Shown here: piece after piece, positions 4,285 to 64,000 of the stretch
How the letters are laid out: each line of letters opens with the position of its first letter
Position numbering within the stretch: the stretch's first letter is position 1
Origin: Euglena gracilis
Taxonomy: Eukaryota
Length of the DNA stretch: 64,000 nt
Direction: 5' to 3'
Assembly: GCA_039621445.1 (NCBI GenBank)
Contig: CP154954.1
Coordinates: forward strand, 8,496,634 to 8,560,633
Notes under the pieces: generated by a model
Databases searched by the model: none
Told to the model about the DNA's origin: nothing
What the model saw: only the letters and a program-made list of their open reading frames with translations
Translations under genes and position numbers: made by a program

Positions 4285-7200
4285 ATTCCAAACAAACAAC
4301 CAACAAGTTTATTTGGACTAATTTGAGACGTCACCGGGGGATTATGACCACAATGCGGACCTCTTGAAACCACCCTGAAAAACGAGCCAATATCGGAAAT
4401 TTGGCCAATTTAAAAAAAAATTGGAAAATTGGATGGAAAGCCGATCCTCCAAAACGTCCAAATGTGCCATAAAACTTGCAACATGAAATAAGGGTCCCAT
4501 TCTACATCCATCGAAAGCTGGCCAGTTTTGGCCATGGGGTCATTCTTGCGGGGGGGGGACAAAGCTAGAGCCCCCAACCCATCGTTTCAAATTATTGTGT
4601 TCCAATATGGACTTGGGTGTGAGTGTGTGCCTGGGACAATTTCCATTGTGTTTGCATTTTAATTCCATTTCCCTCTGTTTTTTTCTTTGGGGGAGAATGG
4701 AAAGAAACCACCACCACCCCTTCAAAATGCACTGTGCTCCCCTCGCCCTCTAGTTCCGTTGTGCTTCATTTTTATGTAAATTCTGCCGGAATTTTTTTAA
4801 AATACATTTTTCATCCACTGCATCAGCACCAAGAAGCTTTCCCTTCGGTCCAAATCCTTCGGTCTCGCCGCCCACGTGCTTAGGCGGCCAAACTCGCACT
4901 TGAGGTTTTAATTTTTAGCTTGCGCTTTTGGCGCAAATTTCCAAACTTTTTTGAGACCCGGCGGTGAAACCCACCCTTTTGACCATCTGGTTCCCTCCAA
5001 GTCTCCAGGCGGAGACCCTCCATGGTGGCGTGTGCAACATTTGGCGATGTTGGGACCTGGGAACAGGCCCAATTTTGGTGTTTTTCAGCATGCGCACCAT
5101 TTTGAAAAAGGTTCAAAACCCTGGGTTTGAACGTCGGGACACGTGATCTTTCCAAAAAAGGGCCAAAACCCCCGTTGCGAGTCCCTTGTTTTTGAAGCCT
5201 TGACTGTGTTCCCCGGATGGTTCTACATAGGCTGGGTGTAGTTTGGCCCTTTTTGTTCCTTTTTTTGGGCTCTGCGATGTGTCCGTGAAGGGTTGCCTGC
5301 TGAGGCATCTAGAGGGTGGACTCTCCCACACCGCCGGGTACAGAAGGCAATGTTTATGGACATTGCGCTTAAGCGCAATAGTTTTACCTTGTGCTTAAGC
5401 GCAATGTAAAATTGTTGCGCTTAAGCGCATTTAACACATGTAACACAGAAGCCCCCTGGGCTTATGGCAGTCCCTCTGATGTTACGGTGTCATTGCGCCG
5501 AAGCGCAATGGATATGCCTACATAATGCAATGCTTGTTCATTCAGATTACACGTCAGCCGCTTGTTTGCACTTCTCATTTTTTTGTATGATGTTTTGCGC
5601 TTCGGCGCAACGTATTTCCTCACCCACTGGCCGTGCAGAGGGGGTCAAATAAGGGGGGGGGATCAAAAATTCCTTTAGAGAGAGGGCAAAAAAAATTTTC
5701 GGCGCCAGCCCATGAACAAAAAATTTCCCCAGACCCAAATGCTCAAGGGGGGGGGGTCAAATAAAGGGGGGGGTACCGTCACTTTCAAAGCTAATTGCGA
5801 GTTAGGCCGCCTAAGATGTGTGCAGTCCCACTTAGACCCAGCAAAAAAAAAATGGCATGAGCGTTATCTGCCAGCAAGCAATGATGGCAAAAAATGACAG
5901 GAAACCTCCATGACAGATGACACATTTGCGGGGCAGCAACGGCAGAGCGAGGATGCGCAGCTGACGGCCGGCCGGGGGCAGGTGCATGCCATCCAGGGCG
6001 TGATCCGCAACCAGATGAACCGCATGATGACCATGGCAGAAGAGGCCGACCATGCTCTTCCGAAGGGGTGGTTGCCCCCAGGCATTTCTTTTATGTAAAA
6101 ATAAGTAGGTTTGAACTGGTTTGGTTGGTCGTCAGAAGGGGGATTTGCACGGGGGAGGGGCATAAGGGTCTAAATTAGAAATCAAAATGCCCCCCTCCAA
6201 ACACCGGTTTCGTAAAAAAAAAAAGAAAACAATTTCAACGGTTAAAGAATTGCCAAAAGTGCTGTTTTCTATGACATTTCATCGCGCACAAAAATGCGAA
6301 AAATCTCACAGAAATTGTGGCCTTGGGGACTTCACCTATTAACAGAGTTTACCTTTGTAGGCCTTGTCTTCATTTTGCAAAAAAAAATTATTATCCAAAC
6401 TCCAGTCAAGGGTTGGGTTACAGTTAGCATTAGGGTTATCATCATCAGCATTTGCCCATGCACAACAGCGTTTACCCGTGGAAGGCTTGCTTCCCACACA
6501 CAAAAGGATTTTGGTATTGGGGTTGCGGGCGGGCTGCCGCCCCCCTCCCCCACCATGAGACTGTAGGCCAACCAAATTCGCACAAATATGTTGTTTAGAG
6601 ATAGGGTTAGGGTTCCAGACAGGGTTCAGGTTAGGCATGGGGTTAGGATTAAGGTAGGTGGCTGCCACAAAACCCAAAAAAAAAACTGATACCAAAAAAA
6701 TGTGAAAGGTTCAAAGCAAAAGTAATTGAAATGGAGTGCAATTTCTAAACTGCGCAAGGTCCTTTAATTTTTTCAGGGCGGGGAAAAATGCACCTCAACG
6801 TCGCGTCCTAATTTTCAAATATTTTGAAAAGTTTCAAGAGAAGCACATCAGCAGTTGCTCAAGCTGTCCCACAAATTTCCACTTGCAAACCCCAGGTGTC
6901 CCAAACTTTTTAACTCATGAAATAAATTTAAAGCCCTGACGTTGGGGATGCACTTATATGCAAATTCCAATGCGTAGAGGTGCTCTTTTGCTTAAGACGG
7001 CCTGACCAAATGGTTGGGCAACCTGGTCAACTGATTTGTGGGACGAAACTTTTGAAAGAAGGGGTGGTAGTCAGGCGTGCCAAGTGTGCGTCCAGCCACG
7101 TACCATCGTCAGTCATCACGGAGCAACTGAGAAGGGTTTGATCCTTTGCAGGAAACAGGAAACATCGGGAGGGTGGGTTATCTGGGTGGTGAACACAACC

Positions 7201-10200
7201 GGATCAGATTTAGGTGTTTACACCCAAAATCGTGGGACATGGCGGAATGTGCACCTTTGCATTTATACCTCTGGAACCTGCCCAATTTTGTGAATTCATG
7301 ACAAAGTTGCCCTCCTGGCTGTCTCAAGGTTTGGTTGAAGGTATTCTCAGATGATCAAACGTGGAAAATACCAGGAATTTACAATTTTTCAAGGGAATCA
7401 CTGTTGAGGTGTTTGGGCGAGTGGCGGATGGTTCTCAACAGAGGGGCGTGACTTCACGCGGCAACTGGTGATGCGCCTCAAGACCCTTCCCAACGCCACA
7501 CTCCTGCCCGAGAACGTCATCCCGGCGCTGAACGAAACCTTCTTCCCTGTTTGACCTGGACCCTGGCTCTGCCCTGCATGTTGAGAGCCGGCAATTTGCG
7601 AAAGCTTTGCAGCCTGGTTGTCGGCAGGCAGTCCAGGAAAACTGTTGATGTTTGCGTGTTTCTATCCTGCTACGTACCCCCCCCCCCCCCGACTTATAAA
7701 CCCCCGGGGGTTAATGGATCCGGTTTTGTTGGTCGGCCGAGGGGGGGGGGGCAAAATGACCCCGAAACCCCCCAAATTGGTAATTTTTGGCAAATTTGGT
7801 CAAAAATGGCATTTTTGATAATGGTAGGTGTCAATGGTGTCAATGGTAGTTGCCAAAAAATCAGTTTTTTGGGTGGTTTGCGGCCGAAAATATCGTCCCC
7901 GGCGGTTTTCATTTTTCTTCCCTGAAGGGGGGGGGTTTATAGGTCCCGGTTTGGTTGGTCGGCCCGAGGGGGGGTTTATGGTGGGGGGGGGTTATAGGTG
8001 GGGGGGGTTTATAAGTGGGTGGGTTTACCCTCCAGGATTTTGAACCTTTTTGAAAAAATAGAGAACCTTTTGGACAGCGATGCTGACATTAAACAACAAA
8101 GGTTTTAAATCTTTTGGACAAGGGTGTTGAAAAAGTTTCAAGGACCCTTACTCCATGAGTACAACTTCCGCGTTCTTTCAACGTCCCCGTGCAAAAGTTT
8201 CAATACAATACACCTGCCCAAAAGTCTCTCCAAATTGGCTAGAAGTTTTAACATCTCTGTCCAAAAGTGACAGTATTTTTGTCCAAGGGGTTCAGGAATC
8301 TTGTCCGAAAACTGTCAGGTGGTCCCAGGACCTCCCTCGCCTGCTCTACAGTAATTTTTTTTGACTTGGCGACGTGGCGAGTGTCGAAGAAATGCTCTGT
8401 GCAAAAGAAAAGAAAAGGAACGTAATGAATGATAATTGGAAAATAAAAAAATGAAAAAAGGAAAACGTTTGACGTCACAAGGAGGAAAGGAATGCTTTTC
8501 TTCAAAGGAAGGTTTTCCTTCAAAAGTTGCGAGGAGTCCAGTTTCTGGGTCACTGCGGTGAAGGCGAACAACTCTCTCAATGGTTATGGCTTGTCCATGA
8601 TATACAAGAACGCGACCCGGCTTCTTTTTCAATTCAAAAATCGCAACCTTTGGCTCGTTGTTAAAAAAAATGGAGCAAAAAGGAGCCCGTACAGAATCAC
8701 GGGGGCCCTGTACGACCGGTCCATTTGGGCGTTCTGGGAGATGTCAAGGACGGGTGCTTTCGATTACATGTATGGCTGGACCAGGCTTGTGCTTAGTCGG
8801 GTGCCTACCCCACGAGGGGGGGTGCTAGGGGCAGGCACCCCATAGCACCCGATCTGACCCCCCCGGGGGGGAAGGTTTTTGGGGGGGTGCCTGCCCATAG
8901 CAGGCACCCCCCTCCGACCCCAGCGCCAAAGGCGCCGGGTGCCCGGAAAAGGCCATTTTCAATGAAAATTTTCTGGTTCCCCCCGGACCCCCCCCGGGGT
9001 GTGCCTGCTAGGGGCAGGCACCCTATAGCACCCACCCCCCCCCCTTGTTGGTAAGCACAAGCATGGGCTGGACCTTGCCCGAGGATGGCCTGCTCCACAG
9101 CCAGGGGTTGGTCCTCCATTGTCATGATTGCCTGTGGAGGTGCCCAGTGTGAATTTCTAAAAGTTGCATAGCATGTTTAGATGCCATTGAAGCAAGTGTT
9201 GTCGAATCATCGTTTCTCAGTTTTGTAGAAATTCCCCAACAATTCTCAGTTGGTACGGAAAAAAAGTTGAAAGTTCTTCCTGCCTTGCCATATTGTTGTA
9301 GAATGTCGAAGCTCTGTTCGGGTTGCAGTTCGCATCGACCTCTGTGGCTGTCTTCCGCAATCATTGGCTCGATTTCGCCACCCCTCAGTTGGGGGAGGCG
9401 CTCTACACCGTGGATGTAATGAGTGTCACAACTGGGAAGCAATGGAACGTTCTGGCCAAGTGACTGCATATTGGGCAAGAGGGGAAAGTTAGTTTTAAAG
9501 ACGAGGTTGGGCAAGAGGGGAAAGTTAGTTTTAAAGACGAGGCACCTTTGCATTTTTCTTTTACGAAATTATTATCATTAAATTGATTTATTTTTGCTGA
9601 AAATTTCTTTGGACAATTTTTATTGAAAACGTTGGAGTTGATCAACATTCTAGGAGGATATCTTTTCAGGCAAACACAGACTCTTCCGACCAGCCCTCCG
9701 CCCAACGATCAAGAAGCACAATAATCACGAAAGATGCAAGAAAATTACGACAGATCACGAAAAAGCACAAATCAGAATTTGGGGTCCTCACCATGAAACA
9801 GAGGTAACCCCCCCCCCAAATATAAGACACCGGTGTCTTATATTTGGGTGTCGACCAATTTCGCCAAAGGGTGTCTTATATTTGGGGGGTGTCTTATATT
9901 TGGGTCTCAGGCGGATGACTGAGGGGTGTCTTATGTTTGGACACTTTTCCAGCAAGTATGTTGTTGTGCTAATGTCCTCGTACCTTCATATATAGGGTTT
10001 TTCTTCATGTCTGACGGGTCATCTTCCGACGCTTTGGAGAGTGTGTATGCTGAAAGCGACCAATCTGCAAGTGGTGATGAACTTGGCACAACGGACTGCC
10101 TCATTTTCTAGAAATTGGAAAATACGAACACTGGCACATTTGTCTGAACGTCATTCATCACCACTTGCAGATTGGTCGCTTTCTTGCTGTTCAAAATAAT

Positions 10201-13200
10201 AGATTCTCAACCTTGATCTGCTACACCCAAAAGCAGTAGACTGGACGTGCGTTAGTTGTTTTCATCACGCCTTGAGACTTGCTGCTGGGGACTGAGGAAG
10301 GCCTTTCGTGGGTGGTGTCTTATATTTGGAGAAGTAGGTGCCGGCCCAGGGGTGTCTTATATTTGGGGGGTGTCTTATATTTGGGTGTCGGCCCGAAAAT
10401 CCCCAAAGGGTGTCTTATATTTGGGGGGTGTCTTATAGTGAGGGGTGTCTTATATTTGGGGGGGGTTTAACCCCCCCAAAATATAATAACCTCCCCCAAA
10501 TACAACCCCCCCCCCCCAATATGAAACCCCCCCTGGGGCATTTGATTTGGTGACCAAATATAAAAACCCCCAAATATAAAATATCAGCTTCAGATCCATC
10601 ACCTCCTGACTCCTCGGATGCATCACCTCTGACTCCTCGGATGCTGCTGATTCAGTGGCCTCGGCGCTCAAAACGACCGAAATTGAGACATCAGGGGAGT
10701 CTCCGACAGGTATTCTTCCATTGGAAGCAACACAAAAGGGCTACGAGAGACATAAGAAAAAGGACAGAAGGTCGCCAGAAGTTTGTCTTCCCCCCATTTT
10801 TGAAACAGCCCCTCCAAATATACCCCCCGTGGGGATCTTGAAATTTCCGCCCAAATGTAACACCGGGGGGGGAGTCCCGCCAGGCTCCGGCCACCTCCAC
10901 GCACACAGACAAAATGAGCCAGAGGCGAACAACAGCGCCAGGCCAGAAGAAGGGATAAAAGGCACCAAAAAAACAGCCACAGTGCACACAGGGGGGGGTT
11001 TTATATTTGGGGGGTTTATTTGGTAACTCAAACTAATTCAACCTAAAATGATCAATAATTTTAAAGCATGGTTTTTCGGTTTCTGCAGGTGCAGCCAGGA
11101 AAATTTAAGGTGTTTGACTGTGCCCAAACAAAACAGGATGAAGGAGTGAGGAAGGAGAAAGCTGTCTGGAGGAATGTCGCTGGTTTAAGCTCCATGTAGC
11201 CGGGGGACTTTGGCGGTTTAAAAGTAACTGGACAAAATCTCTCCAGGTGTTGCAATTCCTGTAACCCCCCCCCCCCTAATAAGTGCACGGGTGCGCACAT
11301 TTTAAGGACGTAGTTTTGGACCCCAAGGGGTGCGCACTTATTAGGGCAGTGTGCACTTTTTAGGGCAAAACCAAAATACTGACGTTACCCCCACTCTTTT
11401 TCCCCCCAATTTTGGGATTTCAAGCTATGAGTCAAGTGATTATGTGTCAAATGTGTCAAATTTGGGCTTGGGCGATGGAAATGTTTGATCTGAGAAGGAC
11501 AATTCTGAGAATTGTGTGTGCTTTCCGGCCTGAGATGCGACAATGATTTCTCCTTTGGGGGGTGCGCACTTTTTAGGGAGGTAGTTTCAGACCCTTGGGG
11601 GGTGCGCACTTATTAGGGCACTGCGCACAATTAGGGCACTGCGCACTTATTATGGGGGGTTTAGAAAGGACGTTGACGATGGCTGCAGTTCCAGGAAACA
11701 GACCACTTGTGCTTTTGTTCATTTTTTTTTTTAGCGATTCAAGACATTTGCTCAATCCAGCAGGTCTCCCCATTGGCAGCACACATTTCGGTTTTCTGGG
11801 TGCTGGGGAGGGTACCAGAAAGGGTTGGGACTGGGACTTTTCATTTTTTTTTGCCTGAACATTTGTGCTCTTGTCCGCTTCAATCATTCACCACTTCCCT
11901 GAACGCGTTCCAATCCTTCTCGAATTTTGAACTCCTCACATGCAGTTCGTACAAAAATGATGGGAGAAAAATGAAGATGAACATCATTTTTTTCGCCTGT
12001 ACCCTTTCTATGCCCCTTTTCAGGGGTAATCAAATGACGCTGCCATTTTTGCAGGAAACCTTATCACCAGTGGGGAAAGTACCAACATTTTCCATGAAAA
12101 GTTGAAATTTCCCTCATTGATTTTTCCAAAACAGGATTTTTTTTATATCATTTTTCTTTGTCCTTTCCCCCCTGTCATTTTCGTTCCCGTCGTTTTTGTC
12201 CAGACTGTTTGCTGCCCTGCTGCCCGTAGCTGATCGACCTATACAAGAATGACGACTTCTTTTACTACGCCATCCCGTGGGCGGCGATGGATGGCAACTC
12301 CTACTGGTACTTTGTCTACATGCGGGCCATCCAATACCACGGTGTATGGTTCAACCTCCAATCCTGGGATGTAGACCTCCTTCAGGGCTGTTTGGTGGAT
12401 GGGACTTGATCGGGTTTAATGGGGAGGGCACAAAATATGGAAAGGCAAACAAACTGAACAACTGCAACAAATAGCTGAACACAAACACTGCAAAAGGTAT
12501 AATGAGATTTATTTTTGATTCCAATTTCATCTTTCTGTGTTCTACTCTGTTTGGATTTGCTCTTGTAACGTCGCCTGCCCATTGTGCCATTGCAACCACC
12601 CCTGTGGGAATCAAAGATTTCTTGTTCCTGTTTTTTTTTGTGTGTGTGACTTTCGTTTCATATGTTTTGTACAACGTTTTTTCAGCCACATCGCCATTCT
12701 CTAATCCACAGTTTTTTTTTTGGAGTTGTGTCATGAATGGACAGCCTTATTTTCCGCACCAAACATCCCTGCTATCACCTGGTTGAGCCTGGTCAGAGGG
12801 TCTGCCAACCAACTCTTTCATTCTTTGGTGGCTAATTCAATTAATTTTTCTGTCTTGCCTCTTCTCTGTCTCTCACAAAGTCACATGAATCCCCTCCGTT
12901 TCGCCTTCCATTGTCATGCTGAATGATTGTCATGCTGAATGATGAACCTAACCCATCTATATTAGATACCCTCCAAAGGCTGCTTGGGGTTGGTTGCTGC
13001 CCATTTACCCCATCTGTCGTGATAGTTTATACTGGACAAATGATTGGTCGAACACCATCTTTCAGGGAGCTTGGGAGGGTCACAAATATGGTCAATGCCA
13101 TTGCGGAGGTGTACGATGATTGGGAAGAGTGATTGTGGATAATTTATACCCCCCCTCAATAAGCCCTCCGGTGAGATTTTGGCAACGTCGATTGCAGCAC

Positions 13201-15320
13201 TGTTATTTTTGCATGCATTTTAGCTGAAATTCACTGCTCGGGTTGAATCCTTGGTGTTTTGTTTGTAGGAGGAAGAAGGGTGCTAAAAAAGGGGACCCCA
13301 ACCAAGTAATTTTTGTCACTGTAAAGCCACCCACGTGACAATTTTGTAACAAATTGGACTGTTTGGTGCGTGGGATAAACTGTATGGGGGCATCATACAA
13401 CGTGGGAGACGGGGTGTCGCTTTGACCGTTCCCCCTTTGGCCCTTGGGGGGGGGGGTCCAGCCAGCCAGCAGCTTTTTTCCATCCTCAGACCTTCCACAC
13501 GTCCACGAGTTTTATTTAAGGGCGGGATGGTGACAGATTTCTTGGGTTTTGGGTGGTGCAAAATGGGCTAAAATGGGCAAAATTGGGCCAGAAAGTGCTG
13601 GTCACCTCAAATTTATGGTCAAAATGTCGATTTTTTGGATATTTGATATCTTTGGGGCCTTTGCAGTTTCGATCAGATTTTGGTCCCTGGTTCGACCCTG
13701 GGTCTTGCTAGTTCAGCCGGGCTGCCCCTATGGGGGAGGGATGTGTTCAGCCAGCAGTTCTTTTTTTCCGCGCCAGCCCAAATTATCCGCCTCGTTAACT
13801 GACACCCCCCTGGAACATGAATGATCTATATTTACCCCACAACCCCATGCGTTGGGATGATCAATCATGATCAAAGCAGTGGTCCAGGTGTGCTGCATGA
13901 GACGACCAGTCCTGCCGGTGAAGTCAGTGTCGTCAGTGAAACCACCGGGCCCACCAGCAGAACCGAAGCGAACAGAACCGGTCGCGGATGGCGCAAACGG
14001 CCACGCGCGCCGCCGTGAGGTTGGGATGCGTTGGCGCCGCCCTGGGGCCGATGCAGAACGGCCTGACCGCTGGGGCCAATGTGGTCGCGTTCGACAGCCG
14101 GGGCTACGTCATGACGGCCACCAATGCGCCCGAGCAAGCCCGGCTGAAGAACTGCCTCGCCTCGGGCAAACCCGTGCTGGCGTGTGTCACCTCTGGCAGT
14201 CCAACCTTACCCCACCCCTTCCCCAGGCTTGTGTTTGTTTTGTCTATTTGGCAATTTTTTTCGTGGCTGGTGATGCTTGTACAATGTCTTCCACCAATCA
14301 ACAATACCACACCATAGCAGCCTTTGAAAAAATGTTGTCGCACTGAGAAGAAGCCTTCGAAAAATTGACCCCCTCAGCACCACCCCTGTTCCATGCCCGC
14401 ATTTTCCACTGCATAGCCAAGGGGCGGTCCCTGTGCGTGCTCCATGGGTGACAGAGTCCGGAGTTTGAGATCTGAACCTGGAACCAAGAGATTATTATTA
14501 GGTTTGGTTTTGTTTGGTGACCCGGGGCAGGCCATTGCTCAGGACCTTGGGGGGGGCCAATTTGCTGGACACCGAAAAAAGCCACTTGCTCCACCTCCGG
14601 GGGGGGGGGGAGTCCGGGAGTCCCCCGACTGAATAAAAAATTTCCTCCGCCGCTGTGCGCCGACTCAGAAAAGAGGGTTTTAATGTTTTTTTCCCTGCTG
14701 ATTTTGTTCTTTAAAAAAGCCCATAAATGTCCAATAATGGCCATTTTCGGCCAGTTTTTTGGGGGTCAAAAATCGGTTTCGCGCAGTCACTGGAAAATAT
14801 TTTTTTCCACTCAGCTAGCTGTGTTAGCAGACCCCCCTGGGGGTCCACTGGGATTTCCAAATCTGGACCAGCTGCAGTCCAGCTCCCCCCCTGGGTTTCG
14901 GGTGCTGCAAACCCTTAAGCAATGGCCTGACCCGGGGAGGGAGGGAGGGAGGGTGGGTGGGTGGGCGGGCCTGGCCTCGCTGCCCCCGGAGGCAGGTTTC
15001 CCTCTATTTGGAGTGGAAGCACTCAAGAATTTTGACCCTCCCCACCCACAAAAGTGGGTTCCCCAGAGCCTCCCCCCCCCTGTGGTTGGGTCTGGGTCCT
15101 AAAAAATTCTTCCAAGGAGGGGTGGGGTTTCCAGGCCTCCCCTCCGTGACCCCCATGGACGAGATGGACTTCCTGTGGGTTGCCCGACCCCAACGGTGGC
15201 ATTTTGGGGGCTGACTGCGCTGCATCAGGCTGCACTTGCATCAGCATCCCAGCTAATCCAGAGGACTGCCATCATGTCCCACCAAAGTGGCTGACATCCA
15301 AATGCATGCGTGTGTGCGTG

Positions 15321-15404
<84 letters not shown>

Positions 15405-18400
15405 CGTGTAATGTGGTGGTGTGGGTGTGCATTTGTACGCATGTCTGTGGGTGTGCGTGCGCCTGAAAATCAGAATTCGAGCGCAAATGCTCAGCTGTTA
15501 AACACAATATTTCGCATTGCCATTACACTACAAAGCGATCGGCCTCTTTTCTTTGCGGCCCCCTGCCATCAGCAACACCCCGTTGTGGAAATCTGGGACG
15601 TGTACACCTCCCTTCACACCCCAGAGTGGGATGCACTGCAGTCTCCGGCTCCCGGCTCCTCATTTTGTGTCCAAAAACCAAAAAGAAAAACCTGGGCTTG
15701 ACGTTTTTAGCGGACGGGCGATGGTCCAGAGGCGCGAGAAATCACTTTTCCCACCAATGTCAACTCGGTTTTGCCAAACTATGGAAGTTTTTTTTGCAGG
15801 TTTTCCTGTGGATTTTTCATTAATATCCCGATCTCCCGCTCCCCACCACTGCCAGCTCCTTGCAAGTGGCAAAATTCTGAACCTTTGGTGCCCCCCCTCC
15901 AGACCTGTTTTGGCCACTGCTGGTGTGCCGCCCACGATTCCCTCGCAACAGGCGGAGCTCCAACTGTCTGGCAAGCGGTATATGGCGATTGTGGCCACCC
16001 TGTTCTCTGGCAGGGGTTGCGTTATGGCGTATTGGCAACTGGCTGACGGTGTGGTCCTTTGCACGTGAACTGTCACTTTGGATTTTCATTCGCGTTTTCC
16101 AAACCCCAGGGATGGTGCACCCCAACAGTTTCAACCAGGACCCCCATTTCACTAACCTAGTACAATGAGAAGGTCAAATCAATCAACGAGAATTTTCCTG
16201 AGCAAGTCGATGTCACCATTCAAAGTCGCAACCAATTCAGCGTTTTTTCCTTTTGACCCATCTTGAGCCTGCTTATTTACCAACTCAAAAAACTTGATTG
16301 CCTTCGAGATCCTTGACGTGGTCGTATTTCTCTTCACCAGCTCCGCTTCAAATTCGGACCCCAACTTCCTGATGTCAGGTCTCGTTTCAGGAAGAGATGC
16401 CAGTCTTTCCTTCAACGCGGCATTCGCTTCCGTCACCTCCTCGATCTTCTCTTGATAGCTCGATAGATCAGTCGATGACATCTTTGTCGCCAACAGGGAC
16501 TTTATGGACACTTCTTACTCATCTGATTCATAGTCCTCTTCTTCCACGCCAGTCGCTTCCATTTCTTGCAACTCGGCTGCCTTCACTTTGAGTTCTTCAT
16601 CTTTTCTTTGATAGAGAGGGTTGCTTGGACCTTTCCAAAGAGGATGAGGAACCAAAACCAACCTTCGTGAGCTTCCCCTGCGCTTGTCGCGTGAGTGTGT
16701 CGATGTAGCTTCTGATTGAGTCCACCTCTGCCTTCTTCATCTCCACATCTTTTGCTTTTTCCATCTCTCTCCTTGCAGCTCTCTCCTTCTTTTCCCGTTC
16801 ACGGCGAATCCTCTCTGATGAAGCTTGTAGCCTTAGGTTCTTTTCCAGTATCAGCTGGGATGACTCTTTGGTCATCGTGCAAAGGTTGAAGAAAACATCA
16901 GACTCGGAGAGACAGTGCCCGCTCAAGGCACTCGCAAAATACGATGCTGATGCCTCTGCTTGACTCCTGGAGGGCTGTTTCTGAAAGGAGGGCATCAGGG
17001 TTGAAGGCTGATCCATGAAGTTTGGGGAAACTGTCTGGAGGTCACGTTGACCTGTTGCAACAACAATAAGCCTGGGGGGCTTGGGGTTGTCTGTGTGTGA
17101 TGTGCCGATGACCCGTAGGTGTCTTCTGTCTTGAAGCCATTCAAGCTTGCGATGAACACAAATCGCTCGGGTCTGAGATTGATGATGGAACTTGCGAGAT
17201 TTCTGACACCTGCAGGATCGATGGTGGGTTGTAATGCAACAATGGGGCAGTGAACCCAGCATCGACAATCATCCTGCATATGTCTGTGAATGATCCGTTC
17301 GTCCTGACGTTCACTTGTTTTGAGTTGAGACCTGTCACTGGGATGTTCTTCAAGAAAGTCTTCAGTGACTGGACTTGGGAGAGCGATCCACACATTTCAA
17401 TGCACCCTTCAGGATTGTAGTGAAAACGTGCCACATTTTCAAATTCTCCTATGAAATGAAAGAATTGTGAGGTGTGGGAAGCAAAATGTTCCATTTGCTC
17501 TCTCGTCATGTCATTCACTTGACTGGCGGTTGTTTTAATCATTTCAATCGCCACTTGCAGTTCAGGGATCAGAAGTTCGATTATTCTTGCAATCTGTGGC
17601 GCGCACAAACTGAGGTCTTCCGGCTCTACGCCGTGGGATATTGGCCTGATGAGTGATGCAGTTAGAAATATGCCTGGCGTTGTATCATTTCTCCAATTAA
17701 ATTCTTGCCAATCTCGTGAAGCTGGACTCTGTAAGTGTTCTCGGAAGTCTTCTGCTTGTGTTTAATAGGACTCCAGATCGACTTCACCATACGATTCATC
17801 ACCCTTCACTGGCGGAGCAGTGGCTATCCTGCATTTTTCTCTCCATTTCTTCTGCGGCTTGGATATTTTCTTCATGCTGCTTTTCAGCCCTTAGACGAGC
17901 TGCCTTCTCCGCTTCAAGGCTCCTTTTTGACTCAATTGCAGAACGCACATTTTCAGCAGTTGATTCCGCACCTGTCCTCTTTAATTTGTGCTCATCAGGC
18001 TTTCATTTTGCAATTGGCGCAAATTCAGCTTGGGATTTTGCCTTAGCCTTGAGAAGATCTGAGATTGGTGTTGACATTTTTGGTCAGTTGGTTGGGGTTG
18101 GTAAGTGCTGGTGGTGTGTCCGTTATTCAAAGGCGATTCCTGGAGGCGTGCCGTTGAGAGGGTTGGTGTGGAGGGGAGGTGTAGGAAGTTGAAGTGGCCC
18201 CCTGGTGAGGAAAATTGTGTTTTTCATTGTTAATTTCTTGTTTCCCACAGCCAAAATGATGCCGGCACAGGCCATTGTGGGAGCTGAGGATGGCTTGGGA
18301 CGCCCACCCCCAGCGCCTTTGACTTTATGAAATCCCTAAAGAAAAAATAATCTGCGGATATGGTGACCGACTTGAATGCGGATAGAGTGTCAGTGGAGAG

Positions 18401-21400
18401 TTGGTGGGAGAAAGGTGGTTGGTTGGTTTTGGGCGTCCTTACCTTCTCAGACAAAGATGTGCGCAGCTCCGCGAACTTGCCCGCAAAGCGACGGTATTAC
18501 CCACTGCAATCGGGCGAATGTTTAGGCTGCCACTGAGGCCGTCCTTCCTCCATGGAATCAGGGTGGCCGATGAGATGAATGGCATGGCTTGTGATGGCAG
18601 TGGCTGCTTTGGAGAACGTACACAGCGCTGCCAACACCATTACTGCTGCAGCGGCGTCCACGCGCACTACATCCTGGAGGTGCTGGGGTCGGAGTCCATC
18701 TGGGCCTGCAGCAGCCGCTCTTGGAAAAGAGAGAAAAGTCTCACAGAGAAATTTATTCTAGTCATGTTGCTTTTGGGAGGATTCCTCCTTTGGGAGCAGA
18801 AACACTTTGGAGATGGGATCCACACAGATGACTTCTGGCCTTCTTGGATGCAAGTCTCTCATCTTGGCCTGCACCTTGGAGTCCAACAGGTCGTGCAACC
18901 CATCAGACATTGAGATGACGCATTGCCTTGCTAGATGCTCTATCTTCCATCAAGCCCCGCAACGTGTTTAGGAATGGGGCAGCCTGTCCACTTTGGTATG
19001 TTCAACTGCGAGTGCAAAGGATCTCGCGGCATATACAGTGTTTGTAATTAGGAGTGACCGTGGGGAATTTTGGTTTGATGTTGCAAATTTCAGATTGATC
19101 TTTCTCAAAAGCATGGAAGGGGAAAACCAAGGTATCATAAACAAGTTGCAGTTGAGATTTTGCTGCGATTTTATCACCAGACAATTTCGTTATTTTCTCA
19201 AGCTAGCTGCAGTGATTCTGTGAGATTTTTAGACCATCAGATAGCGCTTGAAAAGAGCTTTCAATTAGTGTGCAACAACATAGGTGAAAGCCAAGATTTA
19301 GAGGTGTTCAATCGAGGAAATTAGCACACAAACATAAGTTGAGCAACAGGCTTTGGGCAATCAAAAAACGAACTCGATGGAATTTGGTGAAGAGGAAAAC
19401 TGCGGAGTTTCCTACCACGCGAACTTTGTCAGCAACCAAACCAACGGAAACTGGTCCACTGAACTTCGAATATCCCTTGTAATTCAGTCCTCGTATGAAC
19501 TCTCATGTATCTATTTTTTTGACATATCACATGGCTCAGAACTGAACTGCAGGCTATATGTACGGTGGTGGGGCGAGGGCACAGAACTGAAAGCCCCAGA
19601 ACTGAAAGCCCCCGGTGGGGTTCAAGTTACAAGTTCAAGGTGGAAGGCTTACCAAGTGCATGTTATCAGGACAAGTGTCATGTTCAATATTTACTGGCTT
19701 CTTTGCTGGTGGTATTTGCAGGTCCTTTTCTGCTGCAGCAGTTCAACTGGCTGTTGACTTTTGAGGTGGCTTGAGGTGAAATGAACTTATTGGAAGGATA
19801 TTTATCTGGATTTGAGCACGTCAATGCTAAATTGCTCCATTTTGTTGGGATTGGCCAGACTGTGTATTTTCTCATTTTCTGTTGCTGTTCCCAGAAACTC
19901 GAAGGTTTTTGTTTGTCTGTCCATTTTGTTTGCAACAAAATGGTAATCTGGGTCATTTTGATTTGCTTTACAATGGTTTGAACCATTTTTTTTGGTGCCC
20001 CATCTTGGGGCCAGTTTTGGGGCCACACCTTTGGGCCAGTTTGGGGCCACTGGTGGTGGCCAGTTTTGGGCCAGATGTTGTGGTTGGTACTGGATTGTAC
20101 CACCCACCATATATGAATTCACCCCCAATGTAGAGAACCCCCCCCTGGCGACTGAATGCAGAAACCCCAAAGCAAAATTTTTACAACATATAGGCATTAC
20201 AGTAACAAAAGAAAGAAAGAGAACGGTAAATTCACTGATGAAAAAACATGAGGTAATAGGTGCTTTAACATCAGTCAATCATTTGGCTCAGCTGCCTCGT
20301 CTGGGTACAGGAACAGTGAGGCAAAATCATGTCCCTTTGAACCCCCCCTGTTTTATTTTGGAGAAAAATTTGTGAATCAGAAATCAACCACTTTTTTTTT
20401 GCTGAGCTTCTGGAAGTTTGCCTGTGCTTTTCAATGAGGGAACTGAAAAAAATTCAGTAAAATGCAAAAAAGAGTCAATGAATGAAAATGCAATCAATAT
20501 TTGCCAGCATTTAGGCATTTTTTTGTCATTTTTTTTGGGGGGGGCATTTTTGACCATTTTCCAGCCATTTTTTGGTCACATTTAAGTGAGGTTTTATGAA
20601 AATGGGAGTGGGAAACCAACAGAAGTCGATAATCATGGTAGCAAGAAACATGGTAAAATTTAGTGGCTCTGTATTTTGAAATGCGCTGCAAAAGTTGAAT
20701 TTTTTTTGTCAGAGAAGCTTTTTATAAATCATTTTCCGAAGATGTTGTCAACAAAATTTCCACCGGTTCCACATTGGAGCAATGAAAGCATGGTCGAGAT
20801 GGTCCTAAACTAAATATCACAAAACTTCGAAAGTAGTGGTAGTCGGTGGTTCAATAATATTTTTCACCGAATATGGACCCCCCCAGTTCTATCGGCTGCC
20901 CGGCATAATTGTTTGGGGTGCAAATATTTCAGGGGCTTCCAGAAGGGGGGGGATGGAAGTATTGACCCCTAAAATACTGCACATTCGGGAGAGATGTTGG
21001 TATATTGAGATATTGCAGCGGCCCCTCATCCAAAGATAATTTCCGCATCACCATCGTGTGGTATCAGCCTTGGGTCGTCACTGGCATCCACTCCGTGGAA
21101 CTCACGGCACTCATCTGCATCCTGCCCTGGTCGTTGCCCAACGACCGAGGGGAGAATACACAGCATGACCTTTTGCTTTTGGCTGGTGGCTGATGCGGGC
21201 CGTCTCTACCTGGCCATTCAAGCATTCAGTTTTTACGAATTTCTTCTATGAAACACATGGGAAAAACGTGGTTTTAGGAAAGTGCAGGGAAACATGGCAT
21301 GGGTTTGCCAAACCCCAGTGTGTTCCTTTCTGCACCTCTCACGGTCAATTCACGGCCAGCAGATACAATTGCAGTTTGGAACTTCCGGGTGCAAAATGAC

Positions 21401-23689
21401 AAAATGGAGAGGGGTATGCCCCAGCCAGGCTGACCAGCTGGGCAACCGGGGGGAGGGGTTTCAGGGGAACCCTGGAAACCGCCCCCCCCCCCTCCTTCCC
21501 CCAGCTCTGCCAACCCAGGGCCGGGAAGGAGGCTAAATTTTATGCGGTGCTGTTTCCAGTATGCGCAGGAGCAGGATTTAATACAGTATTTTCAATTGAA
21601 TCATAATTTTCACCTTCCAGCCTTGTTCATTTTCGTGTGTGGTGTCTCCCTGCCAGCGTGCTGACTGGAGGCAACCCACCCAATAAGAAGCTGTTATTTG
21701 TTTGTATGTTCAGCGGCCGGGCTCTGACCATGCTATCAACCTTTGTAGCCAGGACACCACGCTGGTCCAGACAGGAAAAAAGATGGTTGGCACTGGTTCT
21801 GCGGTTTTCTTCAGCTTTTCTGTTGATTGTGCCCTTGTTGTTGTTCAACATTACTGCATCCGCGGCTTTGGGGTTTTGGTGAGGATTCCCCTCCCGTTTG
21901 TGACTTGCGTCAAATCCCAATGTTGCGCAGACCCTGCGTCAACATTTTTATGCCTCTGCACTATGCCCAAACTCTGAGGTCCCTGGGTTTCAACTTTTTG
22001 GGATGCTAATTCTTCCAGAAATGGGCCACCGCCCCCGTGCTCAGTCCCACGTTTTTTGAAGCCTTCATTGTGGCTTCGAGATAGTGTTGTACAATAGGAA
22101 ACCACCCAGATGAAATGGTGGGGGGCGGATGGACAGTTCTACTGTCCACTGTGCACCTAGACCACCATACACACCGCACAATGACCCACAAAAGTGGGCC
22201 CCCTCCCAGTCAGTGCCAACCCCCAAGGTCCTGAAAGAATCTTCAATTCCCTCTCCTGTGTTACCCCCCCCCCCCAAATAGAAGCCCCTCCCCCCCTCGG
22301 GTTCCCCGCCCAAAAAAACAACAACCAAACAACAGCCCCCCCCCACAACCAAGCCGACCGACAAAGTTGACCAAATTTTTTCCAAAAAAAAATGGTGAAA
22401 ATCTCGAAAAATCTCCATGGAAACAGGTCGAAATCGGAAACAAAAGTGATATCTGGCATCTTTGAAACATGGCCTATCCACCCAAAACTCGGAAAAATGC
22501 GTCATGCAATTTTTTTGTTATTATTTTGGACCCCGTTCGATCTCCAGATCGGCCGCTGGCCGAAGGTTTTTCCTTTAGACAAAGGGTACCCAAAGAAGAA
22601 GCCCCCCCCACCCTCTGCAGAGTGACCGAATAGTAGCCCCAGGGGGCTTCTAATTGGGGGGGTTATGATGTGTAGGGCAAAATCCACGCCAAAACCCAAC
22701 TCCTCCCAAAAATATGGGCGAGAGGTGAGGGAGAAGTCTGGGGAGAATCATCGACTGGGTCCATTTTTTTTTAATTCTGGGCTGGAAATGGGTTAATTTT
22801 TGACTGGGGAAAATTTATGATAAGGTATAGTATGCCCTTGCCCCCCTCCCCCCGACCTTTCCCCTTCTCCCGAATTTTCAGCTGTCTACCTGTCAATTGA
22901 CAGTCTTCCGTGGGCGATGATGTGGTTTTGCTTTCTTTGGTGGGAGTGTGGGAAGGCATTTGGAACAGTTTCACAGTGGTTTATGCACACAAATGACTTT
23001 TTGAAAAAGGTAGGTCTATTGCGAACTCTCGCACAGCACAAAAGGTCAATTCACTCCCTTCACAGGCCCAGATTTCGTCTTTGTTGGAAACAGGCATGAT
23101 GGGCCAGTCTGGTGGGTTGTGGCTGTTGGCCGACCAGTTACTCAATTCCATCCACTCACATCCAAAGCTACTCCAAATCTCGGGGGGGGGGGTGGAATGA
23201 GCATTTTTCAAATCACTTTTTGGGTGCCCAAAATGTTTCGTCAGGTTTTCTTTTTGCTACCTCCTGTTTTCTTTTTCCTTCAGGAATAAAACCCCCAAGT
23301 TTTAAAGGGTCCCTCAGGCATACCTGAGGGAAACTTTTAAAGGGTCCCTCAGGCAAAATGAGAGGGAAACCATTGTGCATGTTGGTGAAAATTACCCAGT
23401 TTAGATTTCAACATTTGTTTCATTTGTTTTCTAAGGCAAATTTGCACAATGGAAAAGAAAAACTTTAATTTCGACATTGGTGCAATGATTGCACAATTGT
23501 ACAACGGTTGTCTATTTTGAAGTTATTTTCCTGTGAACGGGTCCACCGTTGGAAGTTGTCACCTCAGCCAGTATTCACTGATTTTGAAGCTTTTAAGTCT
23601 GTTAGCTTGTTTCAGCATTGATTTTGTGGAAGAAATAATATATTGTTTTTGTGTTTTTTGTGTACAAAAATTCATACAACACCTTTGGT

Positions 23690-23722
<33 letters not shown>

Positions 23723-24715
23723 TTTTTTTGTTTTTTTTTTTGACATCTTTTCATTTTCCTCTTTTCTGCAGGTTTCGTCTTTTGCAGACAAAAAATTCAT
23801 ACAACACCTTCTTTTTCACGGGAAATAATTTTCTTCTCAGTGGCACTTCCCTTGCAGAGGGAGGGGGGCAGTCTGCCCTGCCGCCGCTCACGCTGCTGGG
23901 CGTCTTCGGGGTGCTGCGACCGCTGACAGCGTTGGGGCACGCCATGCGGGCAGTGGCGCATGCCCTGAAGGAGGGCAGCGGGGAGGGGGAGGCGGTGCTG
24001 GCGCCACGGCGGCCCAACGTGTTCCGGGAGCACCCCATTGCCTCAGGCAATTTGCCTGGCGGGCCGGAGGCACACCGGGCACGGAAGCCGCCAGAATTTT
24101 TTTTGAAAATTCTTGGGCCAGAATGCATTGAGTTTTGAGCCGTTTTGACCTGAGTGGCGGGAGTGACCCCGGGGGGGGGTCAGATGTGAGTGAGTCCTAT
24201 TGGTTTTAAAAGTTATGAACGGTGTTTTTTTTAAAGGCTGAAAATGGCCACTTGGGTTGGTATACTCCGGGCCTTGGGGGGTTGGTGTGCTCCCGGAACC
24301 CCCCCCCCCCGGAGGTCCGGAAGCAGGGATGGCCAAATGTGCTCGCCTGGCTCTGAAGTATAAAAAATATCAAAATTCATTGCCTTTGAGTCATTCTGAC
24401 CAAAATGGCCAGAGTTGCCGACCCCGCCCCCCTTCTGGGTTTGGAAGTGACTGACTGGCTTTGAAGCAGTGTGGGCTAGTTTCTTTTTTTTGAATGGCGA
24501 CCCTTTGGGGGTCGGTTGGCAGTGGTATGGCGGAGAGGTGGACACCATCGGACAGGACTTCGAGACCATTGTGGTGGACTTCCTCGGCTTCTCCAGTGCC
24601 GGCTGGGGGAGGCAGGAAAACGGCCGACAAGAATGGGGATTGTGGTCAAAGGGAAACCAAAGTCAGTCAATCGTTTTATTTGTGTATATTTTTGGAAATT
24701 ATTGTAACTTTGCAC

Positions 24716-24759
<44 letters not shown>

Positions 24760-27700
24760 GTAGCTCTGCATATATCTGGATTTTTTTTGGTCTGTTGCTG
24801 GAAACGTCTAGAAGGGGGTGGGCTTCACTTGGGGGGGGGGGTAGTGTATTTCTGGCTGGCCCATTTTCAACGCGCGGGACAACCGGTATGCCCCCAAGGA
24901 CCCCAACGTGCCCTTCGCTGTCATCTTCACCGACATCCAGTCCAGCACGGGGCTATGGGGCGAGGACCCTGCAGCAATGTCCCACACAGGCACTCCAAGT
25001 TTTTGTACTTGTGAAATGAATCTGTTTTTTTCTCCAGAGATCTTCGGAACTCTACACACGCCACAAAAACCAATCAGCAATGAGAACGTTCACATCCCTT
25101 GAAGAGTGTGTCCACAGTGAGTGCATTTTTCCTTCTTGGGCTTGAAGATCAGGGCTTTGATGCTTTGATGCTGCTAAATGCAGATTCAGAACTGTGTTTC
25201 TTGATTTTTTTTTAGAACGTTCAGGTGGCCAAAAGGACAGTGCCTCCTTCCCTTTTGAGAGTTGTTACCCCCTTTGGCGGTTTCCGCAGCCATCCACAGA
25301 GGATCTGTGCACCATACCCAGTACCCCAGTACCCTGGTACAGAACTGCTAACCACCTCCGAGTACTGGCTTAAACAACCCCCCCTTTTATTTAAACCATT
25401 CCATCATTTACTCTTCTTCTGTTTGCCCTGACCAGGCCTCTGACCCGGGATGAGTGCGGTACGCACCCGACCGCCTGGCATCGGTGTGTGCAGGCCCACC
25501 ACACCCTCATCCGCGACCTAATCAGTGAGCACTGCCTCTACGAGGTGAAGACAGCGGGTGTCCAGCACTGGATAGGGCAATGCAATCTTCCCAATAATGA
25601 TACACCTTTTTTGGGGGAAAACAAGGGGTGATACACAAAAAATCATCTGAAATGCTATATTTTCTTCTGTTATATGATGAAGAAAACCATTAAATTATGC
25701 CACAATTATTTGTATATAGCATACAGCAGCAACTTTTTATTTACGAAAAGTGGTCACCAGGTCCATCAATGGTTTTTGGGCACTGCCCAAGTGACTTTGA
25801 AGGGGGTTGGGGCCAAGAAGATCAGTCCACTGATTTTGCAGGGGGCAAAGTTATTTGGAGGGCTTTACCCATCCCCCAGGTCAAATTGTCAGTGGTCACC
25901 CCCAGGCGTCTTGCCCTGGGCATTTTATCACCCCCACCTATGGGGGCCGGAATGCCAAACACACCACGAAACACGCAGTTTTGGTGATTTCGTGATGGTC
26001 ACGGATTCTCCGTGGGTTCATCCTTTTTTTTGCATCAAATTGGGTTTCAAGTCGACTGGGAATATGTCTCCAAAGGTCTGCAGTGTCATGGTTAATTTTC
26101 CTCTGACCCGGGTGGGCAATTGGCGCCCCCTGTCATTTGCCCCCCCCCCCCCCCCCGCCAAATTTGTCACCCCCCCCCATTGTGCTGCCGTTTGTCGTGC
26201 AACCGGTTTTTTGGACCCGGTTCGTCGCACAACCGTTGCCGAGGGCTAAGAAAGGTCGCTGAACTGAACATCAACTGCAGCAGACATGCGGCGCCCCCAC
26301 TCCACACTGCCATCCCGGGCTGGGGCCGACTCGTTCATGGTGACCACCGTCTCTGCCCGAGCGGCGCTCGCCTTCGCCCTGGACCTGCAGCGGGCGCTGT
26401 ACGAGTACGACTGGGACTGGGACCGGTGCGACGAGTTCTACCAGAGGACGACGCTGGCGTTCGTCCCGGCGGAGGACGCCGCGGCGTTCGACGACTACCG
26501 AGCCCAGGCTGGTCTTGGGCTGGCGGGGAGGGAATGCGTGTTGCATGCAGTGCACGATGATATGATCGCAGTGTGTTGCACTGCACTGCATTACTGCATT
26601 GCATTGCATTGTAGCCAGTGCCGAAGTGAGCACCAGACATGCCAATGCTGTACAGTATATTGCAATGTATTGTACAACACAGTGCATGTGATGGTGTGAT
26701 GGTGTGATGGTGTGATGGTGTAATGTGGTATGGTGTGGTATGGGTGGTCTGATATGGCACATTGTGGGGTGGTGTGATATGTTGTGGTATGTTACATTGC
26801 CTTTTGCTACTGTGCTACGTTCGTTGCAGTATTTTATGACATTGTCCTGTTGTTTTTCTGGCAGCATAAAGCAGGGTTCCCGTTTATGTCCTTTTCATCA
26901 ACGGTTTGCCTGAAGGTAAAAGTTGGGATGGTCTACGAGTCCGAATCGGAATCAGGGCAGAGTATTCATCTCCTCGCTCTTCCCCCGCTTCTGGGTGTAA
27001 TTTCTCCTGCTGCGGCACCATGTTTCCAGTTTCCATCCATTTTGGATACTTTCTTCTGCTCATTCGGCTCAGTGACATAGATTCACACTACGCCCTGCAG
27101 ACCAATCCATTATGGGATGGGCGAGGTGGCATTTGACGAGGTGTCGAAGGGCTACGACTATTATGAGCAGAGAGCCACCCCAGTTCGACAAAGCTCCATT
27201 TTTTTCTAGTTCTCAATTTCACATGACCGTCTATGAAACCACCCCTTGTGCATAGGTTGTTGGCAGAGGTGCTGGAAAAGTATGCGTCAGAGGTTGCAAG
27301 ATTCGAAACATTTTCAAAATGGCTGTCCAGCATTGGATGGGCAGCCTATGATTGGGGGGGGGGGTAGAAAACAACCCCAGGTGGGGGCGCAAACCCAACA
27401 CGGACCCTCAAAACATCCGCTGCAAAGGAACGGCAAATAAACGCAGCTTGGACGTTCTGCCATATTGGGTTCGGGTTGGACAAATAAAACCAAATGCTGA
27501 CTCCCAAAATAATACCCAACTCCCCCTGAGTGATCTCGGGCCCCCCAAAGTTTTCCCACGCCAGGCCCCACTGTGCCATCAACATGGCCCATTCCCTCAC
27601 AAGAGGGGGGGGGGCGTCAAGCCACACACATGTAGCCTGGTGAAGCATGAAGATATTGCAAACAAGAGGATCACATATTGGTAATTTGTTCCCCTTCTTG

Positions 27701-44226: not shown

Positions 44227-45390
<1,164 letters not shown>

Positions 45391-51298: not shown

Positions 51299-52502
51299 GT
51301 CTGTTTGGTGTGATTCTGTAATTGGGCAAAGCTAATTATTGCAGAAAAAGAAGACAAACATACAAACCAGCGGGATAAGGGTCGATTTTTTCCCAAACAA
51401 AATCGAATAGCAAGTGAAGAGAAAAAAATTCCAAATTTCCAGATTTTTTTTTTTCACGGAAAAAGTCCCTCATAAAGTCTTTTTGGCTTGGTATTGGATC
51501 GGAGAAGAACTCCTTTGACACAGAGCTGCCCAGGGTGGCGAACACCTCCGTTTTTTCAAATTAAGAATTGCTTGATTGGTTTGCATGAAACCTGAAAACG
51601 ATTGCTTTCGACCCCTAGGAGGGGGGTTGGGTTTTGAGATATGCAACCCTCCCAAGAAATCAGGCCCGGGTCTTATTTTTGGGTCCTTTGCTGGAAAGGG
51701 GGGGCGGTGTTATTTCTGGGGGTTTATTTATGGATTTTTTTCTTGTGCAAAAATGAGCCAAAAATGGATAAAGTGGGTCGGAAAGGGCTGGAAGAGCAAA
51801 CCTCGGTTAAATTTAATCAATTTCGCAGTTTTTTTTCCCCTTGATTTGAGTCTGAGTGGCAGTTTTTCCCGGAATTTTTGCAGTTTTGGTTGTTTTTTTT
51901 GGTTCCCGGTTCAACCCTGGTTCGGGCCCAGCCCCAGTCCGGGACCTGCTGGGGGGGGGGTCAGCCAGCAAAGCTTTTTCCAACCAGCCTAAGAGGTAAG
52001 AGGTGTTTCCCGCCTCTTGAGGTGAGGTGGTCCTGGGGCGGTCGTTAAACAACGCTTTGGCCGGGGGCCCGAAAAGGCGATATTTTCAAAGGATATTTGA
52101 CTGGGGATGAGGCAGGGATCCAGAACCAACCCCCCCCCCCAGGGCATGGGCCGGCATCCCACAGATATCCCACAAAGGCACCTCCCGGGGTTGGTTTAGG
52201 GCAGCCCGGCCCGAAACTCGTCCCGGTCGAAAGGTCAGGGTTTCGCAGAAAAAAAATGCGCAAAGGTGTTCAAAATCCGAGAGAAACAGCGCCAAAATCA
52301 TATAAATGCACAATTTGCCCAAAAACATGCCAAAGTGGCTCCAAATTTGCCAAAAAAATACGGAATTATGAAAAATCGAAATCCCGAAAGCCGAAATCCC
52401 GAAATCCGAAATCCTGAAGTCCGAAATCCCGAAATCCGGCGGCCCCGCCCCCCAGGGCCGTTCTGCGGGGCGCTTCCTCCCCCCATATGTGCGCGGCCCG
52501 CC

Positions 52503-64000
<11,498 letters not shown>

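Follow-up and report, generated by a model that had tools for sequence, protein, structure and literature searches.

A transposable element carrying the nonconventional splice code lies inside a nonconventional intron of a Euglena gracilis cyclase-domain gene

Can a transposable element that carries every sequence signal of an intron act as an intron when it lies inside another one, and does removal of the outer intron then depend on it? The question is raised by a 64,000-nt stretch of Euglena gracilis DNA (hereafter the window; contig CP154954.1 of assembly GCA_039621445.1, positions 8,496,634 to 8,560,633 of the forward strand), in which an adenylate/guanylate cyclase-domain gene contains a nonconventional intron with a MITE (miniature inverted-repeat transposable element), M1, in its interior. 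A first-pass annotation had read M1 and similar units as candidate introns within introns, whose prior removal might dismantle multi-kilobase introns stepwise and bring their short outer stems together. Our analysis indicates that M1 is probably the nested insertion of a non-autonomous MITE into a pre-existing nonconventional intron, an insertion likely to be competent for splicing but not needed for the splicing of its host intron. The features at the center of this argument are, in window coordinates:

14158–15190, + strand: outer nonconventional intron, 1033 nt, removed at joint 14157>15191
14163–14173, + strand: 5' arm of the outer stem, CGGGCAAACCC
15177–15186, + strand: 3' arm of the outer stem, GGGTTGCCCG
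14528–14929: MITE M1, 402 nt, with terminal inverted repeats (TIRs) CAGGCCATTGCT and AGCAATGGCCTG
14520–14527: left copy of the target site duplication (TSD), ACCCGGGG, 8 bp, perfect
14930–14937: right copy of the TSD, ACCCGGGG, 8 bp, perfect
14525–14934, + strand: inner excision unit predicted by applying the published code to the sequence; N3 (GGG), the element and N5 (ACCCG), 410 nt, then G

Splicing of the outer intron is observed in RNA. RNA and DNA reads were placed on positions 7000–26999 of the window, using two raw RNA runs (X21, of which approximately 5% was used, and X24), a probable RNA contig set (X1) and one DNA contig set; 15 of the 173 joints were listed. Joint 14157>15191 is supported by an X1 contig (depth 88), four X21 reads and four X24 reads. 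This contig of 1388 nt, together with the raw reads, defines an mRNA of the + strand. It has 13 joints, at one of which 14 extra letters correspond to a microexon (12777–12790) and bring the number of verified introns to 14. The 14 joined exons read through as one open frame of 366 codons, and none of the 14 introns is of the GT-AG type. M1 therefore lies inside a verified intron, as the annotation had proposed. For a relative, R33, a position inside a larger intron is supported by exact mapping of a transcript-derived protein, which places it in a 3483-nt intron. The host intron of M1 is not multi-kilobase, however, with a length of only 1033 nt.

M1 has the anatomy of an intron at both ends. 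The signature of nonconventional introns reported in PMC12501133 is N3-CDG/CH'G-N5-6^R (the caret marks the 3' cut) with pairing next to the motifs. M1 reads GGG-CAG (14525–14530) and CTG-ACCCG^G (14927–14935), exactly as annotated. The CDG motif occupies intron positions 4–6 after a 3-nt spacer, and the CH'G motif is followed by a 5-nt spacer and a purine, both on the transcribed + strand. The TIRs, which start CAGGC and end GCCTG, match at 12 of 12 nt and provide 12 contiguous pairs that include the motif. The transcribed strand thus contains everything that the published code asks for at the sequence level. The element also folds strongly, with a minimum free energy (MFE) of -183.3 kcal/mol (z -4.65) that none of 100 shuffles equaled, and its stem has a pair probability of 0.90–1.0 when the entire outer intron is folded together with 15 nt on either side. 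Excision of 14525–14934 would leave a single ACCCGGGG, with the predicted junction ...GGTGACCCG^GGGAGGG....

Could this resemblance to an intron be fortuitous? CAG...CTG motifs with short stems are common in GC-rich sequence. Indeed, units of the form N3-CDG...CH'G-N5^R with a stem of at least 8 bp occurred inside the 14 RNA-verified introns as often as in dinucleotide-shuffled sequence (7 versus a mean of 7.1 in 20 shuffles; 2 versus 0.6 for stems of at least 10 bp). The combination of a 12-bp TIR and a perfect 8-bp TSD is, by contrast, not to be expected by chance. A strict scan of the window (exact 8-bp duplication and a TIR match of at least 10 of 12) returned 40 matches, of which 31 fall within two low-complexity arrays (31.0–32.6 kb and 36.1–36.45 kb) and nine elsewhere. 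Six of these nine begin CA, whereas 10 dinucleotide shuffles yielded three matches in total, none beginning CA. M1 also has homologous copies elsewhere in the window. When aligned on opposite strands, M1 and R33 are identical at 71.2% of 410 aligned positions (71.6% over 401 nt when the comparison is to 33262–33646). Furthermore, DNA word depth, which is consistent with repetition but is not a copy number, rises approximately 16-fold over M1 (788.5 in bin 14337–15003 versus 55.5 and 40.4 in the adjoining bins). The shuffle control and the in-window homologues rule out chance resemblance, to which we assign a negligible probability. M1 is instead what a MITE is expected to be: short, bounded by TIRs and a copy-specific TSD, and a member of a multi-copy family. 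Its relatives and other elements of similar design in the window are:

8782–9065: MITE M3, 284 nt, TSD GGCTGGAC, ends CAG...ATG
33262–33697: MITE R33, 436 nt, TSD GCCTGGAC, ends CAG...GTG, M1 family in opposite orientation
41750–42037: MITE-like element, 288 nt, TSD matching at 7 of 8 positions (GGCGGCAC/GGAGGCAC), ends CAGGACGGTCCTTAAGG.../CAGGGCGGTCCTTAAGC...
55179–55482: MITE M2, 304 nt, TSD GTGGGGGT at 55171–55178 and 55483–55490, ggt-CAG...CTG-gtggg^g
57563–57843: MITE E57, 281 nt, TSD GATGTGAT, gat-CAG...CTG-gatgt^g
59721–60180: MITE E59, 460 nt, TSD GGGGTGAG, ends CAT...ATG, M1 family, distant member

The annotation had read M2 as a second complete unit, and the letters bear this out (ggt-CAG at 55176–55181 and CTG-gtggg^g at 55480–55488). 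The M2 TIR (CAGGCTGT...) matches over 8 contiguous nt and at 11 of 12 positions overall, and its TSD is perfect. Two stretches listed as near matches, 33262–33697 and 59721–60180, are real elements as well, each with a perfect 8-bp duplication. E57 is a third unit with the full code and was absent from the annotation. The elements that begin CA range from 281 to 460 nt. Seven have perfect 8-bp TSDs, every one different in sequence, and the eighth matches at 7 of 8 positions. This last element (41750–42037) is less secure, as the relaxed criteria that detected it also gave 12 matches in eight shuffles.

M3 provides a positive control for the ability of such elements to be spliced. Joint 8773>9066, supported by an X1 contig, one X21 read and four X24 reads, skips 292 nt (intron 8774–9065), which is the sum of the 284-nt element and one 8-nt copy of its TSD. 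The position of the joint is ambiguous by 9 nt, as expected because of the duplication. M3 has ATG at its 3' end where the full-code elements have CTG, yet it is spliced out, which gives back the unbroken target sequence exactly. M2 and M3 share 70.5% identity over 288 aligned positions. Thus, a member of the M2 family is a working intron.

Why do these MITEs carry the splice code? The CAG and CTG motifs are the outermost bases of the TIRs, and the remainder of the TIR is the required stem. The two spacers, N3 and N5, add up to 8 nt, which is the length of the TSD (sites 14520–14937, 55171–55490, 8774–9073 and 57555–57851). Hence, the 3-nt and 5-nt spacers are explained as the two parts of one duplication. 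Both cuts fall after position 5 of the TSD, in the left and right copy alike, so splicing restores the empty site and the purine rule concerns TSD position 6. This position is G on the + strand in six of the eight CA-type elements, although this tally is post hoc and comes from few elements. The code is built into this type of transposon; every copy therefore carries it wherever it inserts and in either orientation. On a more speculative reading, the 3+5-nt cut offset, which mirrors the staggered 8-bp cut of a transposase, might point to a geometry or ancestry shared by the splicing and transposition machineries.

A MITE origin of nonconventional introns is a standing hypothesis (PMC3935182, PMC4770533, PMC11282704, PMC12501133) that dates from 2013 (PMC3935182) and was still described as unclear in 2024–2025 (PMC11282704, PMC12501133). 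With the code being transposon anatomy, the presence of code-bearing MITEs within introns is an expected corollary of that hypothesis. The window offers a concrete case. One family provides both a verified intron, comprised of an element and one TSD copy, and a full-code copy (M3 and M2, respectively). A second family (M1 and R33) provides copies nested within introns of the same cyclase gene.

We next consider whether the outer intron needs M1 to be removed first, as an obligatory and ordered nuclear twintron would. In that model, splicing of the inner MITE shortens the intron and lets the outer stems meet, and long introns are removed in steps. Part of the anatomy agrees with it. The inner unit (14525–14934) lies within the outer intron (14158–15190) and carries the full code (PMC12501133), its stem is predicted at 0.90–1.0 versus 0.13 for the outer stem, and the 15 of 173 joints listed exclude no inner joint. 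However, the inner unit lies outside both arms of the outer stem (14163–14173 and 15177–15186), 367 nt from the 5' end of the intron and 256 nt from its 3' end, and interrupts neither. The outer intron has a terminal pairing of its own, CGGGCAA-CCC with GGGTTGCCCG, a predicted duplex with a free energy (dG) of -21.5. Furthermore, the pair probability of the outer stem is the same with the inner unit (0.13) and after its computational removal (0.13), which argues against the proposal that inner loss brings the outer stems together.

The generalization to long introns fares no better. The verified introns of 2802, 5023 and 2139 nt contain only chance-level units with 8-bp stems, and the mature product lacks the 3483-nt intron, although the sole unit inside it is a degenerate one, CAG...GTG (R33). 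An X1 contig of depth 3 (record 2, 14388–14575) also crosses the left end of M1 unspliced, although it could be pre-mRNA or DNA. Thus, what stands of the twintron interpretation is the anatomy, a full-code MITE inside a verified intron and on the transcribed strand; the mechanism and its extension to other introns find no support in these results. We consider ordered, obligatory removal very improbable.

Twintrons of Euglena plastids are spliced sequentially. The group II/III twintrons of these plastids and the stwintrons of fungi (PMC3534033, PMC6616335) share with the twintron reading of M1 an intron-like unit within an intron and the idea of an ordered, two-step removal. In both, however, the inner intron interrupts an element that the outer intron needs and the order is forced, whereas M1 interrupts nothing known to be needed. 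In the strict sense of the term, the M1 arrangement is thus no twintron. They also belong to a different splicing system from the nuclear nonconventional one considered here.

The preferred explanation, nested insertion, would account for these observations as follows. A young multi-copy element would have inserted, with an 8-bp TSD, into a cyclase intron (14158–15190) that already existed. Copies that land in exons would become introns, as 8782–9065 did, and those that land in introns would become passengers. Pairing between its own ends would then serve to remove the outer intron, which would carry M1 along. The inner unit is probably recognizable by the same machinery and may at times be cut separately, as a by-product on which the outer intron would not depend. 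It is reasonable to expect the inner unit to be competent, because wild-type-like splicing was reported for five 50-nt inserts that were fully synthetic and carried the signature together with a 12-bp stem (PMC12501133).

An alternative is that M1 is purely a passenger, never recognized as an intron because the machinery requires exon context, timing or unpaired spacers in addition to the signature. Its TSD offers a structural reason. ACCCGGGG includes the palindrome CCCGGG, through which the M1 spacers can pair, and the predicted MFE stem runs on through both of them, unlike the artificial introns tested in PMC12501133. The signature is found in just 61.2% of nonconventional introns, according to the same source (PMC12501133), which implies that other determinants exist, and the unspliced contig crosses the left junction of M1. 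Against this, the five artificial introns with the signature were spliced like the wild type (PMC12501133), and M3, a family relative whose 3' motif is the poorer ATG, is cleanly removed. On balance we find a pure passenger unlikely, if a serious alternative. That the inner unit is excised separately is plausible, with chances close to even. The raw RNA depth in bin 14337–15003 was 0.03+0.16 (X21) and 0.1+0.03 (X24), and the 15 of 173 joints listed do not include the inner one.

Several points weigh against nested insertion of a dispensable unit. The argument that M1 is dispensable draws on sequence statistics and a thermodynamic model, and RNA depth over the element is low. The model gives the outer stem a probability of just 0.13 and so explains outer splicing poorly too. 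The efficient splicing of synthetic signature inserts (PMC12501133) means that inner excision could be frequent and even usually come first. Furthermore, the outer intron reads N4-CGG...CCG-N5^A after a 1-nt slide and misses the strict 3-nt 5' spacer, whereas a 5' +1 change was not tolerated in the knock-in tests reported in PMC12501133. The N4 spacer of an intron that is nevertheless spliced indicates that its recognition is not fully understood. Finally, the RNA placement represents one 20-kb stretch of one gene.

If the inner unit is excised, 14525–14934 would be the first nuclear nonconventional intron within an intron. In the main texts of the literature searched, we found no report that euglenid nuclei contain nonconventional twintrons or nested introns, and the word twintron appeared only in references on plastid introns. 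The nonconventional introns described in euglenids (PMC12501133, PMC3935182, PMC4770533) share their motifs, spacers and terminal stem with the M1 unit, and in both a purine follows the 3' cut. They lie between exons, however, whereas the predicted M1 unit is inside another nonconventional intron. Nested copies are a natural experiment: a machinery that reads only the code should cut them too. Cutting would make them a new kind of nested intron in Euglena and a source of circular RNA; failure to cut them would mean that the published code lacks something and that context plays a part. On the boldest reading, to which we give somewhat less than even chances, nonconventional splicing would precisely excise this type of transposon wherever it is transcribed, including 14525–14934 as a circular RNA released from the pre-mRNA or from the excised outer intron.

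The ends of hAT transposons commonly begin CAG. These elements have TIRs of 10–25 bp and 8-bp TSDs (PMC3942097), and the window elements likewise combine an 8-bp TSD with short TIRs. Like the MITEs described in the same source (PMC3942097), the window elements are short, have TIRs and copy-specific 8-bp TSDs, exist as diverged copies and lie in or near genes. MITEs are typically AT-rich, however, whereas those of the window are GC-rich. A Pfam search of 20 long or coding-like open reading frames of the window, a set that did not include the frames of M1 itself, detected no significant family and no transposase, and an Rfam search of the window returned no match.

The Merlin transposons of E. 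gracilis also generate 8-bp duplications, and their TIRs are reported to all start GG (PMC8101967). The shared organism and TSD length made them candidate parents, which we rejected: the ends start CAG or CAT in all eight CA-type elements, not GG (PMC8101967). Introners and other transposon-derived introns (PMC9860276, PMC12130899, PMC11282704) resemble the window elements in that transposon ends and a TSD supply the signals for removal and insertion makes introns. They use the ordinary spliceosome and GT-AG-like sites, whereas the window elements rely on a stem-defined code.

Maize Ds elements, too, are reported to be spliced from transcripts (Giroux 1994, as cited in PMC3935182).

Six elements have an end design in common, comprised of CA(G/T), approximately 8–9 variable nt and TTA(A)G, in the following pairs of arms:

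8782–8798 and 9049–9065
14528–14544 and 14913–14929
41750–41766 and 42021–42037
55179–55195 and 55466–55482
57563–57579 and 57827–57843
59721–59737 and 60164–60180

The variable stretch differs among copies of a family, yet the two arms stay complementary within each copy. For example, M2 has TGT(A/T)TT where M3 has TTGTGC, and M1 has CAGGCCATTGC where E59 has CATACATCTCT. Selection for a stem might account for this co-variation, as might the use of one end as the template for the second, or the existence of subfamilies whose partners differ.

E57 may itself be an intron within an exon, as an open frame runs across its empty site and the removal of 289 nt keeps the frame. Open frames across empty sites proved non-discriminating as evidence for exons, given that the intronic M1 gave frames of 53 and 51 codons on the wrong strand. 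Two protein matches to the flanks of E57 were also dropped, the better one being to a tandem-repeat protein with 20-residue units. A codon-usage scan trained on 686 cyclase codons identified coding-like stretches on both sides of M2 (52491–52664 and 56233–56340); protein searches with the two stretches returned no match. Scanning metagenomes for a 20-nt family motif retrieved a single contig, which was AT-rich and unrelated.

The host gene and the introns that surround these elements are represented by the following features:

8768–36827, + strand: coding span of the host gene, 700 aa, adenylate/guanylate cyclase-domain protein, from an exact-match exon map
12380–12776, + strand: intron, CTT-CAG...CTG-CTATC^A
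12791–14049, + strand: intron, GGT-CAG...CTG-GGGCC^G
14050–14157, + strand: exon upstream of the outer intron
15191–15255, + strand: exon downstream of the outer intron

The gene product corresponds to P0001 (eukprot:EG_transcript_1068), a transcript-derived protein to which exon 12233–12379 is 100% identical and which carries the adenylate/guanylate cyclase domain (PF00211, E 3.9e-24). The gene has approximately 27 exons, counting three upstream transcript exons from position 7455. With equivalent slides allowed, N3-CDG/CH'G-N5^R describes eight of the 14 verified introns but not the other six; the middle pair is Watson-Crick in seven of the eight and T-G in the other. The 14-nt microexon (12777–12790) sits between two of the code-compliant introns.

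Exact mapping of P0001 defines the intron that contains R33 as 30379–33861, which reads GGC-CAG...CTG-TCCGC^A. The same intron contains, at 31000–32600, a dense array of GC-rich 43–44-nt units with GGCCGCGGCCGGCCGCGGCC cores, both direct and inverted, and with many long inverted repeats (the longest of 83 nt at 86% complementarity).

Parts of the cyclase-gene introns are occupied by very high-copy repeats. DNA word depth reaches 4x10^4 to 1.7x10^5 in 7667–9000 and 10335–11668, versus approximately 45 in unique sequence. A DNA contig form that lacks 254 nt (joint 19798>20053) has a depth of 318, approximately 8 times the unique depth; inspection of 19798–20053 by eye revealed no TIR or duplication, and the form is probably derived from further copies of a repeat. 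Microsatellites are located at 44228–45389 ((AC) x 587), 53602–54957 ((CACA)n x 343) and 56419–56772 ((CACA)n x 88).

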